Below are positions 20,872 through 27,519 of a stretch of 64,000 bases of DNA, in pieces. The notes beneath the pieces were generated by a model. The model saw nothing but the letters and a program-made list of their open reading frames with translations, made no database searches and was not told where the DNA came from. Numbering within the stretch: the first letter of the stretch is position 1; each line of letters starts with the position of its first letter. The stretch comes from Halarcobacter sp. (GTDB taxonomy: Bacteria; Campylobacterota; Campylobacteria; Campylobacterales; Arcobacteraceae). The position numbers and the translations under genes are program-made. The stretch covers positions 1,344,001-1,408,000 of the forward strand of contig OY781089.1 of NCBI GenBank assembly GCA_963676565.1. Reading direction: 5' to 3'.

Positions 20872-20876
20872 ACTTC

Positions 20877-20897
20877 ACTATCCTTTAAGGATAGTGT
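20877..20897. terminator. Hairpin between convergent genes
   Basis: CACTATCCT-TTA-AGGATAGTG. Confidence 0.7.
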
Positions 20898-21782
20898 TTA
20901 TTGGAAGAAGTTTTTAAGCTCTTCGATAACTTCTTTTGGTTTTTCCTCAGGTAAAAAATGTCCACAGGGAAGTGTCTTACCCCGTACATTATTTGCATAA
21001 TCTTGCCAAACTTTTATAACATCATAGGTTTTATTTACAAAACCTTTTTCTCCCCATAAAACCAATAATGGAGTATTTAATTTCCTATTTCTTGTCTTTT
21101 CATCATCTATCATATCAATTGTTGCACCTGCTCTATAGTCTTCACAACTTCCATGAATTGAAGCTTCATCATAACATTTTATATATTCTTCTACTGCTTT
21201 TTTATCGAATTTATCTTTAAAAGGAGTATCTTTATCACTCCACCTTTTAAGTTTCTCTTTTAAATAATAAGCTGGGTCATCTCCTATCATCTTTTCAGGC
21301 AAGCCATCTGGCTGAATAAGAAAAAACCAGTGGTAATATCCAGTTGCAAAAGATTGATTAGTATTTTTAAACATATGATATGTGGGAGTTATATCCATTA
21401 TACAAGCTTTCAAAATTTTATCTTCATAATCTAAACACATTCTATGGGCAACTCTAGCACCTCTATCATGACCTGCTATATAAAACTTTTTGAAACCTAA
21501 ATGATTCATTAACTCAATCATATCTTTTGCCATGACTTTTTTAGAGTAATTTGAATGGTCATCTAAGCCCTTTGGTTTAGAACTTTTTCCATAACCTCTT
21601 AAATCGGGACAAATTACATAAAAATATTTTGAAAGTTCATTTGCAACTTTATGCCACATAACATGGGTTTGAGGGTATCCATGAATTAGAAGTAAAGGTT
21701 GACCAAAGCCCCCATGTCTAAAGTTAATTTCTATTTTATTGGATTTGATTTTTTCTTCTTTAAAAGTTTGATTAAAAAGCAT
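20898..21782 (-). CDS. Alpha/beta hydrolase, fluoroacetate/haloacetate dehalogenase-like
   Basis: HGYPQT, GHDRGARVAHR, MDITPT, YYHWFF, CEDYRAGA, CGHFLPEE. Confidence 0.88.
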   Translation of the reverse strand: MLFNQTFKEEKIKSNKIEINFRHGGFGQPLLLIHGYPQTHVMWHKVANELSKYFYVICPDLRGYGKSSKPKGLDDHSNYSKKVMAKDMIELMNHLGFKKFYIAGHDRGARVAHRMCLDYEDKILKACIMDITPTYHMFKNTNQSFATGYYHWFFLIQPDGLPEKMIGDDPAYYLKEKLKRWSDKDTPFKDKFDKKAVEEYIKCYDEASIHGSCEDYRAGATIDMIDDEKTRNRKLNTPLLVLWGEKGFVNKTYDVIKVWQDYANNVRGKTLPCGHFLPEEKPKEVIEELKNFFQ

Positions 21783-21852: not shown

Positions 21853-22506
21853 TTATTTAGTTCTATTAACTTTTCGTTCTAAATGTTTAGCGAAAATTGC
21901 TATTGTGTATGTCATTATAAAATAAAAAACTCCAAGTGTTAAATATATTTCAAAAGGTTCATAAGTTCGTACATATATAAGTTGACCTGCCCTTGTTAAT
22001 TCAGTTATTGAAAGAACTGAAACTAGTGAACTATCTTTTAAAATAGATGCATAGGTATTTGTAAGTGGAGGTAAGACTATTTTAAGTGCTTGCGGATAGA
22101 TTATATGTATAAACATCTGAATTTTACTAAGTCCTAAGGAATTTGAAGCCTCATATTGTCCTTTTGGTATTGCTTGAATTCCAGCTCTAACAATTTCAGC
22201 CATATATGCACCAAAATTTAAAGACAAACCTATAATAGCAGCTTGATGACTTGACATCGTAATACCAATTTGTGGTAGGCCATAATATATAAAAAATAGT
22301 TGAATAAGTAAAGGTGTTCCTCTAAAGATTTCAATATATGAGCTGATTAAAAACTTGATAAAATAGTTTGTCTTTAAGCTTCTTAGCGTACCCACAATTA
22401 CACCAATAAATAGTGCAATTACAAAAGATACAAAAGAGAGATAAATTGTAAGCCATGAGGCTTCTAAAAGAAACCCCAAGTTATCAAAAACAGCGTTAAA
22501 ATTCAC
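21853..22506 (-). CDS. Polar amino acid ABC transporter permease
   Basis: RGTPLLIQL, AEIVRAGIQAIPKGQYEA, LKDSSL; GTG start. Confidence 0.93.
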   Translation of the reverse strand: MNFNAVFDNLGFLLEASWLTIYLSFVSFVIALFIGVIVGTLRSLKTNYFIKFLISSYIEIFRGTPLLIQLFFIYYGLPQIGITMSSHQAAIIGLSLNFGAYMAEIVRAGIQAIPKGQYEASNSLGLSKIQMFIHIIYPQALKIVLPPLTNTYASILKDSSLVSVLSITELTRAGQLIYVRTYEPFEIYLTLGVFYFIMTYTIAIFAKHLERKVNRTK

Positions 22507-23232
22507 TTATTTTACTGCCAGCCATTTGTTAATTAATTTCTCGTAAGTACCGTTATCTTTTAAAGTTTTTAAAGCCTCATTAACTTGTTTTGTTAAATCA
22601 TCTTTTCCTTTTTTCATAACAACAACTAATTCTGCCGGTGCTAGTTTATCAACAATTTTATATTCACTATTAAAATCTTTTTGATTTAATGCATATGCAT
22701 ATCCAACTACAACAGCATCAATACGATTGTGTTTCAAATCTAAAAATGCTTCTGGATTATAGTTATATCTAGCTACTTTTCCAAGTCCAGTTAATTTATC
22801 AACAACTTGTTCACTTCCACTTCCAAGTTGAACACCAACAGTTTTACCAGCTAAATCTTTTTGTGAATTGATTTTATCATTATCTTTTTTTACTATTAAT
22901 ACATCATTTAGTAAGTAATAAGTATCTGATAAATTTACATTGTTTTCACCTGCTTCTTGTCTACTCATAGCACTTAATATAATGTCATAGTTGTCATTTT
23001 TAAGTCCACCAAGTAGAGCTTGCCACTCTGCATCTTTAATTTCAACTTTTTTACCAATGATTTTACCAATTTCATTTGCTAAATCGATATCAAAACCAAC
23101 AATATTTCCACTTTTTTCATCTCTTGATTCAAATGGTGGATACGCTGCACATAAACCAACTGTAATAACATCTTGTTGAGCATTTGCAAATATACCAAAT
23201 GTTAACAATAAGCCTGCAAAAAATTTTTTCAT
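22507..23232 (-). CDS. Polar amino acid ABC substrate-binding protein (SBP family 3)
   Basis: Signal peptide, YPPFE, GFDIDLA, GVQLGS. Confidence 0.93.
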   Translation of the reverse strand: MKKFFAGLLLTFGIFANAQQDVITVGLCAAYPPFESRDEKSGNIVGFDIDLANEIGKIIGKKVEIKDAEWQALLGGLKNDNYDIILSAMSRQEAGENNVNLSDTYYLLNDVLIVKKDNDKINSQKDLAGKTVGVQLGSGSEQVVDKLTGLGKVARYNYNPEAFLDLKHNRIDAVVVGYAYALNQKDFNSEYKIVDKLAPAELVVVMKKGKDDLTKQVNEALKTLKDNGTYEKLINKWLAVK

Positions 23233-23780
23233 AAAAGTTCCTTTTGTATAGCCTTAACTAAGGCTGTTGGATTTTCTTCATCTAAAGCAAAAAAAGATAA
23301 CTCTAAATTGTTCTTTTTAAGTAATTTAAAAAACACTTCCATAAAAACGCCTGCTTCATTCACTGTTTGTAAAGAGTTTAACTTTTTTTCTAAATCAAAA
23401 GATTTATCTATCTCACCTTTCCAATTAGCTCTGCAGGTTTTATTTATGCCACAATTTGGACTTCCATCTATACCAATGCAGCCTTTAATTTCATATCCAT
23501 TATTTTTATAATCAATTATCTGATTTATAATAGGAAGTAGCATTTTTTTGTATTGTTTTTTATATATTGCTGTATCGTATTGTTCTTTTACCATTCCCCA
23601 TCTATTAACCCCACAGGTTAGCATTTCTGGACATGGTAATTGCAAAATTCCGTAACCTTTATCACATAAAGAAGTAACAAGTTCAGATATACACCCGCTA
23701 TAATTAGCTAAGGAATAAACTTTTGCATTAGAATTAAGTATACAATGACTTAAAAGAATGATTTTTTTGCTTCGATTCAT
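23229..23780 (-). CDS. TudS-related (DUF523-like, CD3072-type) putative Fe-S desulfidase
   Basis: SHCILN, QLPCPEM...GVNRW, GIDGSPNCG, GVF; ATGA overlap with the SBP gene. Confidence 0.8.
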   Translation of the reverse strand: MNRSKKIILLSHCILNSNAKVYSLANYSGCISELVTSLCDKGYGILQLPCPEMLTCGVNRWGMVKEQYDTAIYKKQYKKMLLPIINQIIDYKNNGYEIKGCIGIDGSPNCGINKTCRANWKGEIDKSFDLEKKLNSLQTVNEAGVFMEVFFKLLKKNNLELSFFALDEENPTALVKAIQKELL

Positions 23781-23876
23781 GAAAACCTCAATTAAATATA
23801 AGTTTTCCTAAAAAGCAGTGTTGACAAGAAAAGCTATGTTGTCATTCCAAACCTTGGAACTTGCTTAATTTTAGAA
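23781..23876 (-). promoter_or_regulatory. Structured 5' leader, candidate riboswitch
   Basis: Stems UUCCAA/UUGGAA, UGACAA/UUGUCA and AAGCA/UGCUU, plus an SD-sequestering GAAAACUU/AGGUUUUC hairpin. Confidence 0.55.
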
Positions 23877-24020
23877 TATAGAATTTTAGTTAACAAAAAC
23901 TTAATACTAGTTAAATTAATGACTCATTAATATATTTTTTATATTAATATATTTTATCAAGTGGATATTAAATCCACTTTTAATAATCTTCCATAATTTT
24001 AAAAAATAAATGGGTAAAAG

Positions 24021-24689
24021 ATGCGACTTCTTGTTAAAAGTGTATTGATTTTAATGTTAATTTTCACATCGACTTTAATTTTAATAAAGTTTAGTGGAGT
24101 ATTGACTGTTTCTGATATAAAAGAGGTTTTTGAAGTTTTAAAATCTCAACCATCATATATTTTAGGCTTTTTGATTATATTTTTACTTTTAGTAGATTTA
24201 TTTATTGCAGTGCCTACAATGACAGTAATAATTCTTGCAGGGTATTTTTTAGGTTTTGAATTAGCATTTTTATACACCTTTTTGGGGCTTTTATTGGCTT
24301 CTTTTACTGGATATTTTTTGTCAAGAAAATATGGTTTAAAAATTTTAAATAGATTAACGTCAGACCAAGAACAAATTGAGCAAATGAAAGATTTATTTAA
24401 TAAACATGGAATCCTAGTACTAATTTTATCAAGAGCAGTACCTATGCTTCCGGAGATTTCAGCTTGTTTAGCAGGAACTTGCAGTATGTCAATAAAAAGA
24501 TTTTTCATTGCTTGGTCATTGGGAACAATACCATATTTATCTGTAATTGCATATGCAGGCTCAATAAGTGATTTAGAAAATCCTATGCCCGCAATTTACG
24601 GTGCCATTGGTATTACTATAAGCTTTTGGTTTTTGTGGATGATATTTTTAAAAGCAAACAAAATAAAATTAAAAAATCAAAAAAATTAA
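24021..24689 (+). CDS. TVP38/TMEM64 (VTT/DedA superfamily) membrane protein
   Basis: Multi-TM; AVP...AGYFLG, SRAVPMLPE. Confidence 0.85.
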   Translation: MRLLVKSVLILMLIFTSTLILIKFSGVLTVSDIKEVFEVLKSQPSYILGFLIIFLLLVDLFIAVPTMTVIILAGYFLGFELAFLYTFLGLLLASFTGYFLSRKYGLKILNRLTSDQEQIEQMKDLFNKHGILVLILSRAVPMLPEISACLAGTCSMSIKRFFIAWSLGTIPYLSVIAYAGSISDLENPMPAIYGAIGITISFWFLWMIFLKANKIKLKNQKN

Positions 24690-26820: not shown

Positions 26821-27519
26821 GTGGAAGTAATGGGTGAAAATCAAAAAACAATCGAACCCATTACTCCAGCACAAAAAATACTCTTAGAAGCTAAAAACTT
26901 AACTCACGAATTTGATTATAAACTTTTTGAAAACATAACTTTAATACTTGAACAAAAACAAACTATTGCTATTATTGGAAAAAGTGGAAGTGGAAAATCA
27001 ACTTTATTAAATATTTTATCCTCTTTATTAGAACCAAAATTTGGTGAAGTTAATTTTAATAATCAAAATATATATAAACTAAATAAAAATACTCTCTTAA
27101 AGATTAGGAGAGATGATTTTGGTATAATATTTCAAGCGCATTATTTATTTCGTGGTTTTTCTGCAAATGATAATTTAAAAATTGCAACACTTTTGAGTGA
27201 AAATGAGATTGATGAAGAGCTATTAAAAAAGCTGGAAATTGATTTTGTAATTAATCAAGGAGTTGGGGAATTAAGTGGGGGACAACAACAAAGATTGTCT
27301 ATTGCTAGGGTTTTAACAAAAAAACCAAAAATTATATTTGCAGATGAACCCACAGGAAATCTAGATAAAACTACAGCTCAGATAGTAATGGATAGATTAC
27401 AAGAATATGTTAAAGAAAACAATTCTGGGATGATACTTGTTACCCATGAAGATGATTTGGCTATGCAGTGCGATAAAGTTTATAAGTTAGAGAATTTAGA
27501 ATTAAAAGAGTTAAAATAG
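26821..27519 (+). CDS. ABC transporter ATP-binding protein (orphan)
   Basis: GKSGSGKS, LSGGQQQR, ADEPTGNLD; start may be ATG 26830. Confidence 0.9.
   Translation: MEVMGENQKTIEPITPAQKILLEAKNLTHEFDYKLFENITLILEQKQTIAIIGKSGSGKSTLLNILSSLLEPKFGEVNFNNQNIYKLNKNTLLKIRRDDFGIIFQAHYLFRGFSANDNLKIATLLSENEIDEELLKKLEIDFVINQGVGELSGGQQQRLSIARVLTKKPKIIFADEPTGNLDKTTAQIVMDRLQEYVKENNSGMILVTHEDDLAMQCDKVYKLENLELKELK

Follow-up and report, generated by a model that had tools for sequence, protein, structure and literature searches.

A CD3072-family TudS-like enzyme encoded with an ABC importer in Halarcobacter: a candidate operon for scavenging a chalcogen compound, possibly a selenium species

Three adjacent genes on the minus strand of a 64,000-nucleotide stretch of Halarcobacter sp. 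DNA (contig OY781089.1, positions 1,344,001 to 1,408,000; hereafter the window) encode a TudS-related enzyme, a solute-binding protein (SBP) and an ATP-binding cassette (ABC) permease, and are preceded by a conserved leader RNA. The source genome is a single contig of 3.34 Mb, and close homologues of the enzyme carry the name Halarcobacter. The operon is made up of the following features, numbered from the first letter of the window.

23229–23780, minus strand: gene 1, CD3072-family TudS-related putative [4Fe-4S] desulfidase or deselenidase, cytoplasmic, 183 aa
22507–23232, minus strand: gene 2, periplasmic family-3 SBP of a distinct subfamily, with signal peptide and pocket Cys28, 241 aa
21853–22506, minus strand: gene 3, single polar-amino-acid-type (PAAT) ABC permease, presumably a homodimer, 217 aa, GTG start
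23778–23890, minus strand: conserved 5' leader RNA, candidate riboswitch or other cis-regulator (alignment, RNAalifold, covariance model)

An earlier note on this DNA, made from the letters alone, had described three coupled genes with an ATGA overlap and an abutting stop and GTG, and this observation is confirmed by the coordinates of the open reading frames: the stop of gene 1 and the start of gene 2 share ATGA (23229–23232), and the GTG of gene 3 abuts the TAA of gene 2 (22507/22506). It was also right that no ATPase is encoded there, as no ABC ATPase gene was found among the window open reading frames of the operon and its flanks. The closest such gene, at 26821–27519 on the plus strand, has its best match in LolD or other ATPases of exporter type; it is not of the amino-acid importer type and was therefore ruled out as the missing importer subunit.

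By its score, the window enzyme belongs fully to NCBIfam NF045597, the CD3072 family (193.4 bits against a cut-off of 130, E 1.6e-57, model positions 1–147 of 148), and a six-frame search of the genome gave the same result. Its three spaced Cys, which had been pointed out before, lie in the motifs SHC13ILN, LPC50PE and GSPNC110G and are invariant in 23 of 23 diverse homologues, together with N16, the segment Q47-L-P-C-P-E52, R60 and S107-P108. In TudS, a [4Fe-4S] cluster is reported to be ligated by Cys10, Cys43 and Cys104, with Glu45, Ser101 and Ser103 being catalytic (PMC10611767). Residues C13, C50, C110, E52 and S107 of the window enzyme match Cys10, Cys43, Cys104, Glu45 and Ser101, a correspondence drawn from motif spacing (C-P-E; S-P-x-C) and not from residue-level structural superposition. 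When an AF2 model of the enzyme (pLDDT 88.3) was searched with Foldseek, the five best matches were all TudS (E 6e-4, TM 0.50/0.58), and VIA-align placed 139–144 residues on TudS 6Z92/6Z96 (Z 10.3–10.5, root-mean-square deviation 3.2–3.4), the next unrelated chain scoring Z 6.8.

Three results on the enzyme run counter to the interpretation developed below. Pfam PF04463 (TudS/DUF523) gave 21.6 bits (E 2.3e-4), below its threshold of 34.7; a profile built from 23 CD3072-family members retrieved no TudS chain from the PDB at E <= 1; and the position of the catalytic Ser103 is taken by N109 in the window enzyme and by N, S or T across the family. Taking the fold match and the kept cluster residues together with the failure of the profile in the PDB, the CD3072 family is therefore best described, from sequence and modelled structure, as a distant TudS-fold branch that keeps the cluster site. 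The previous assignment of the enzyme as TudS-related thus holds, and the search with profile models that had been recommended for it succeeded with the CD3072-like model, PF04463 remaining below threshold. The likeness to TudS (6Z92, 6Z96; PF04463, formerly DUF523) and its fusion form RudS consists in the fold over about 150 residues, the three Cys at the cluster-ligand positions, the Cys-Pro-Glu and Ser-Pro-x-Cys motifs and the retained catalytic Glu and first Ser. The window enzyme differs in being about 30 residues longer and only 13–17% identical, and its family is encoded with importers, whereas the word "transporter" does not occur in the available text of the TudS and RudS papers.

Across the Arcobacteraceae, NF045597 was found above its cut-off in 13 of 151 genomes, belonging to three genera, and the order enzyme–SBP–permease is kept in all 13. 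Cassette-type SBPs (E <= 1e-50) were detected in each of these 13 genomes, and the remaining 138 yielded none, a coincidence well beyond what chance would produce. The 12 other Arcobacteraceae loci contain no cassette ATPase gene within their 19-kb context. A further 80 loci from other lineages were surveyed, giving 93 with the Arcobacteraceae holders included. The SBP and permease genes adjoin the enzyme gene in 34 of these 80, and the SBP gene alone does so in one. In 17 of the 34, all from Bacillota, a GlnQ-like ATPase gene comes next; the 17 without it are from Campylobacterota, Desulfobacterota and relatives, a Methanospirillum record and the C. botulinum/sporogenes group. One genome (G110; loci L014/L043) harbors a decayed cassette, with the enzyme cut to residues 1–65 and only fragments of the permease, alongside an intact leader (95.8 bits) and a selD gene that is still present.

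Importers of two other kinds were found with the enzyme. An energy-coupling factor (ECF) S component of the CD3073 family (NF045596, 251 bits) accompanies it in 21 of 93 loci, including that of C. difficile, and a Cetobacterium locus also holds the ECF A, A' and T genes. A sulfonate/taurine-type SBP was seen in 11 of 93 loci, the permease that goes with it in 12, and three fusion proteins of 365–375 aa (P0121–P0123) join a CD3072-type enzyme domain to an ECF S component. Given three importer kinds and a fusion, the enzyme acts on an imported compound. The window enzyme is thus a full member of one half of the NF045597/NF045596 pair, which is named after C. difficile genes, but at the window and 46 other loci its family is paired with a family-3 SBP and PAAT permease instead. 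Co-occurrence of the three genes in other genomes, which the earlier note had made a test of its proposal, is strict and wide (13 of 13 Arcobacteraceae holders, 34 of 80 other loci). The weight which that note had placed on an amino-acid-type SBP as the specific partner is not sustained, an ECF S or sulfonate/taurine-type ABC partner being just as frequent.

The SBP of the window belongs to PF00497 (124.7 bits, threshold 26.4) and stays under every NCBIfam equivalog cut-off, the best model being that for Lys/Arg/Orn (157 bits) and the second that for cystine (122.8 bits, cut-off 312). For the permease, matches to PF00528 (82.9 bits) and TIGR01726 (99.9 bits, cut-off 42.2) were obtained, and its best equivalog, the cystine permease, gave 206 bits against a cut-off of 300, so that neither protein reaches the TcyJLN cut-offs. 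An SBP, a HEQRo three-transmembrane permease and an EAA motif, as found here, are those of a PAAT-type importer, of which the cognate ATPase gene is missing. Cassette SBPs (42–43 sequences) were aligned with E. coli GlnH, TcyJ, HisJ and ArgT. All four references carry an Arg (in T/S-I-T/S-D/E-E/K-R) and an Asp, which we take to be, from the GlnBP and LAO structures, the anchors of the ligand alpha-carboxylate and alpha-ammonium groups. In their place, the cassette SBPs have "MS..EA" and "VGYAYA". Cys28, conserved in 41 of 42 cassette SBPs, falls at the position of GlnBP Asp10, presumably a contact to the ligand side chain; a second Cys at position 88 is present in 27 of 42, and conserved aromatic residues are abundant in the pocket. 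Judged by these residues, the cassette SBP is not a normal amino-acid binder, and a plain amino acid is an unlikely ligand because the conserved Arg and Asp are absent and a near-invariant Cys is present instead. The deduction of an amino-acid-like substrate from the type of SBP accordingly loses its ground, an ergothioneine- or ovothiol-type compound in particular being a conceivable ligand that is neither favored nor disfavored.

Residues E119, A120, L124 and G125 of the EAA coupling motif are kept in at least 90% of the 42 cassette permeases, and an ATPase is therefore still expected. The source genome encodes three amino-acid-type ATPases, and all three adjoin genes of other systems of this type. 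A search of it for an orphan ortholog of the cassette ATPases found none; the closest to these (48–56% identity) adjoins another amino-acid-type system. Supply of the ATPase in trans, as was suggested previously, is considered reasonable, since the permease keeps its EAA motif and the Bacillota versions carry the GlnQ-like ATPase gene. A second pair of family-3 SBP and PAAT permease genes, with no ABC ATPase gene detected beside it, lies elsewhere in the source genome (C1:1577215–1578837, minus strand).

Genes for SelD, YedF and double-cubane reductases lie near a few of the loci, which prompted a test of co-occurrence with selD, called as TIGR00476 above its cut-off. All 13 Arcobacteraceae holders of the enzyme have selD, as compared with 77 of 138 non-holders. 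The gene was also found in 46 of the 48 scored genomes behind loci L045–L094, a set in which two genomes were unscored and which leaves the other 29 loci outside the search. In a sample of 300 Clostridia genomes, selD is present in 13 of 13 holders and 39 of 287 non-holders (Fisher p = 3e-11, a value that is overstated because related genomes are not independent). The phyletic pattern thus points to selenium instead of the supply of a sulfur metabolite that had been proposed for the operon. In M. maripaludis, a permease/SBP pair annotated as being of amino-acid ABC type, MMJJ_04340 and MMJJ_04350, is reported to rise by 3.90 and 4.61 log2 units, respectively, upon selenium depletion, as do YedE, DUF3343, an ECF S/T pair and an HgdB-like gene (PMC11097638). 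Two SBPs of Methanococcus voltae carry the cassette signature (six cassette-type SBPs compared). The source genome itself has two selD genes (C1:1958723–1959640, minus strand, and C1:1992297–1993211, plus strand), each with one in-frame TGA (Sec-type SelD); genomes G129 and G141 likewise have two.

The leader RNA folds, according to the alignment and RNAalifold, into a three-way junction with P1 formed by AAGCA/UGCUU, P2 by UUCCAA-GGU-UUGGAA and P3 by GACAA...UUGUC. In a further helix, GAAAACU pairs with AGGUUUUC, between the Shine-Dalgarno sequence and the ATG. A covariance model of the leader, R1, finds a single copy in the source genome and, among 150 Arcobacteraceae genomes, picks out the 13 cassette genomes and the G110 remnant alone, with one copy in each. 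Two distant Campylobacterales leaders share the architecture, and with them included 7 of 23 pairs change on both sides. One match, in locus L053, was in the wrong place and was dropped; the true leader of that locus was read by eye. No leader was found outside the Campylobacterota with the R1 model or by k-mer count. Rfam 15 gave only chance-level matches on 23700–24100 (best E 0.37, all far below gathering scores), and no relevant riboswitch reached its gathering threshold in 23 loci of other phyla, the M-box and cobalamin riboswitch matches seen among these loci belonging to other genes. The leader is regarded as a candidate riboswitch or cis-regulator that appears dedicated to the cassette, structured and unclassified in Rfam.

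Gene order and its conservation, family and fold, conserved residues, the three importer kinds and fusion, the selD pattern and the leader were all computed directly, and from them we infer cluster binding, chemistry, a role of selenium, the nature of the substrate, the source of the ATPase and a ligand for the leader. With high confidence, the operon couples an importer with a TudS-like Fe-S enzyme by which the compound taken up is processed. That it scavenges a scarce chalcogen compound, most likely a selenium species, from which selenide is released on the Fe-S cluster, is a more evenly balanced proposition. In such a scheme, the periplasmic SBP would capture the compound, with its near-invariant pocket Cys at the position of the side-chain contact in GlnBP and the usual amino-acid anchors gone. 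The permease, as a homodimer, would import it, driven by an amino-acid-type ABC ATPase encoded elsewhere or, in Bacillota, by one whose gene is part of the cassette. In the cytoplasm, the TudS-like enzyme would bind the selenium (or sulfur) on the free iron of a [4Fe-4S] cluster held by three Cys, and the carbon–chalcogen bond would be cleaved hydrolytically by means of the conserved Glu52 and Ser107. The selenide might then pass to the selenophosphate synthetase SelD, and the structured leader RNA, which may be able to mask the ribosome-binding region, would set expression. A bolder version, that the family marks an unrecognized, widespread selenium-acquisition pathway together with a new Campylobacterota riboswitch class, is put forward only tentatively and is rather doubtful. 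Three interchangeable importers (family-3 SBP plus permease, ECF S component, sulfonate/taurine-type ABC) would in that case feed an organoselenium compound (selone or selenol) to a TudS-like "deselenidase", and the riboswitch would sense a selenium compound or a signal of selenium status.

To the enzyme results named above must be added a number of points that weigh against a role in selenium scavenging. No selenium gene lies beside the operon in the window, and the two selD genes of the source genome are about 600 kb from it. Adjacency is rare across the survey as well, with YedF encoded no more than 6 kb away in 5 of the 93 loci and SelD in 2. Both holder genomes without selD (G165 and G189) are metagenome-assembled. 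Most holders are anaerobic and belong to lineages in which selenium users abound, and the control with canonical TudS (PF04463) was itself positive, selD being present in 43 of 127 TudS-positive and 9 of 173 TudS-negative Clostridia (or, counted the other way, TudS in 43 of 52 Clostridia with selD and 84 of 248 without). Part of the selD signal is therefore a matter of lineage or lifestyle. Despite this enrichment of TudS, the strict nesting of the CD3072 family in selD genomes stands out. MMJJ_04340/04350 are no more than candidate orthologs of the cassette genes, and the regulated-gene list of PMC11097638 contains no CD3072-like gene. TauE/SafE genes, which directly follow the permease in L033, L034, L035, L037 and L039 and in the remnant L043 (two Arcobacteraceae genera), and TDT-family genes, seen in 3 Halanaerobiales loci, fit sulfur as well as selenium. 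Finally, no paper on the CD3072 or CD3073 families was found when searching with the family names and two C. difficile locus tags.

Salvage of a sulfur heterocycle would account for much of the same evidence. The cargo would be a thione or thiol, for example ergothioneine, a 2-thiohistidine-type molecule or a thiolated nucleobase or nucleoside. After import its sulfur would be stripped for the carbon skeleton or for sulfide, and the association with selenium would merely reflect how the holders live. Several points were counted in favor of sulfur: small heteroaromatic compounds are the typical cargo of ECF S components and of ThiY-like sulfonate/taurine-type SBPs, the SBP pocket is rich in aromatic residues, the catalytic Glu and Ser are retained, a TauE/SafE "sulfite exporter" gene comes after the cassette in five intact Arcobacteraceae loci, and canonical TudS is similarly, if more weakly, enriched among selD genomes. 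The only characterized relatives, TudS and RudS, are also reported to act on sulfur compounds, namely 2- and 4-thiouracil, 4-thio-UMP and tRNA s4U (PMC10611767, PMC11417400). However, 11 of the 13 Clostridia holders possess canonical TudS as well, so the CD3072 enzyme and TudS are not simple substitutes for one another. TudS is in addition distributed differently: 127 of 300 Clostridia have it, and 84 of these lack selD. Nesting in selD genomes as strict as that of the CD3072 family (13/13, 46/48 and 13/13) is not what one would expect of a general route for the salvage of sulfur or pyrimidines. Sulfur is probably rarely scarce in the sulfidic habitats of many holders, and three kinds of high-affinity importer suggest a trace nutrient. 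Sulfur salvage is judged unlikely, ranking next after the selenium reading.

Two further explanations start from the importer. Uptake of cystine or a cysteine derivative with a desulfidase in the same operon, for sulfide supply or cysteine detoxification, has a precedent in E. coli tcyJ-dcyD-tcyL-tcyN, the K-12 cystine ABC operon, which by annotation encodes a D-cysteine desulfhydrase. That operon likewise combines a PAAT-type importer with a chalcogen-releasing enzyme, and the window permease is nearest TcyL, the cystine models being best for the permease and second for the SBP, although both scores are well below the curated cut-offs. It differs in that TcyJ keeps the Arg and Asp lacking from the cassette SBPs, that the E. 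coli operon includes its own ATPase and that DcyD is by name a D-cysteine desulfhydrase and not an Fe-S protein. DcyD uses pyridoxal phosphate. Cysteine desulfidases with a [4Fe-4S] cluster do exist, as reported for CyuA (PMC12647591). The fold of the window enzyme is that of TudS, however, not that of CyuA or a pyridoxal phosphate enzyme, and neither of the enzyme's alternative partners (ECF S, sulfonate/taurine-type ABC) carries cystine, so a cystine system appears improbable. Equally hard to credit, and very improbable in our view, is the import of a metal–chalcogen or organometallic compound in the manner of SAO, in which the pocket Cys would chaperone a soft metal or metalloid and the Fe-S protein would strip or transfer sulfide. 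The conserved Cys28 and Cys88 (41 and 27 of 42 SBPs) do recall the CU and CC pocket motifs described for SaoB/SaoX (bioRxiv 10.1101/2022.07.06.499078). SaoB/SaoX are reported to be related to the solved SBPs 3VVE and 4ZV2, and the top PDB match of the window SBP is 4zv1/4zv2; genes for double-cubane reductases and for their activases were each found close to the cassette in 5 of 93 loci, an association that the SAO preprint also reports. Against this, no Sao-named family is among the 14 NCBIfam matches listed for the SBP at E <= 0.01, the permease sequence holds no Cys at all, the neighborhood survey revealed no conserved metal-handling genes beside the cassette, and the function of SAO is itself a hypothesis. 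Membership in SAO was rejected, as neither the window SBP nor the permease gave a Sao-named match, SaoP and SaoX being hit only by neighbors at other loci and below cut-off.

In summary of the earlier note, its observation of a three-gene operon stands and its interpretation is partly supported, the enzyme, the coupling to import and the ATPase in trans being retained and the argument from an amino-acid-type SBP to a sulfur substrate not. The favored selenium scavenging by way of a TudS-like enzyme can be compared with YedE/YedF, which were proposed on the same kind of evidence, occurrence in selenium users only plus some adjacency to selD (Lin et al. 2015, PMC5322559), but which are protein families unrelated to the cassette. 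Lin et al. mention neither DUF523, TudS and CD3072 nor ABC systems, and the Haft 2022 preprint likewise has no mention of DUF523, TudS or CD3072. Literature searches pairing TudS with selenium returned nothing on the CD3072 family. For DUF523 with selenium, all that came up was a single DUF523 selenoprotein; its motif is SxSUG, and it has been predicted in Desulfosarcina sp. BuS5 (PMC12013277, PMC13188914). By motif, the selenocysteine of SxSUG falls at the third cluster Cys of the CD3072-family S-P-x-C-G.

Around the operon, two further features were annotated on the downstream side.

20898–21782, minus strand: alpha/beta-fold hydrolase, 70 nt downstream of the permease (PF00561, 109 bits)
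20876–20896, no strand assigned: terminator-like hairpin in the interval between the hydrolase gene and a convergent flavoprotein gene (consensus scan, 9-pair stem; pattern match only)

The consensus scan gave no terminator-like site in the gap between permease and hydrolase; the hydrolase is probably co-transcribed with the cassette here, and the hairpin is likely to be the end of the transcript. A hydrolase homologue follows the cassette only in the closest relative, L032, and the gene was therefore placed outside the conserved unit and ruled out as a fourth cassette gene. On the other side, a gene for a VTT/DedA-family membrane protein (24021–24689, plus strand) is divergent from the operon and is shared with the closest relative only; a link to selenite uptake exists for DedA proteins. 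In three of the loci with TauE/SafE, LrgA- and LrgB-like genes come next. In four Halanaerobiales loci (L050, L085, L086 and L097), the enzyme and ECF S genes are clustered with genes for a C-GCAxxG-C-C protein, a TDT/SLAC1-family anion transporter, YedF, SelD and a double-cubane reductase with its activase.

It is not yet settled how prokaryotes acquire selenium selectively when it is present in traces and sulfur is in large excess. The published candidates for selenium uptake are mainly YedE/YedF (PMC5322559), and a systematic test of transporters is reported to have tied no single transporter locus to any of ten selenium species (PMC11097638). The cassette, which is distributed over Campylobacterota, Desulfobacterota, Clostridia (gut and pathogenic species included) and methanogens, offers a testable candidate for selenium uptake, made up of a binder, a permease and an enzyme that can be taken separately. 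Its ABC importer family is also one in which the ATPase gene has been lost repeatedly, and the ligand of its unclassified leader RNA could name the substrate. Selenium aside, the TudS fold would gain a role in the processing of imported substrates.

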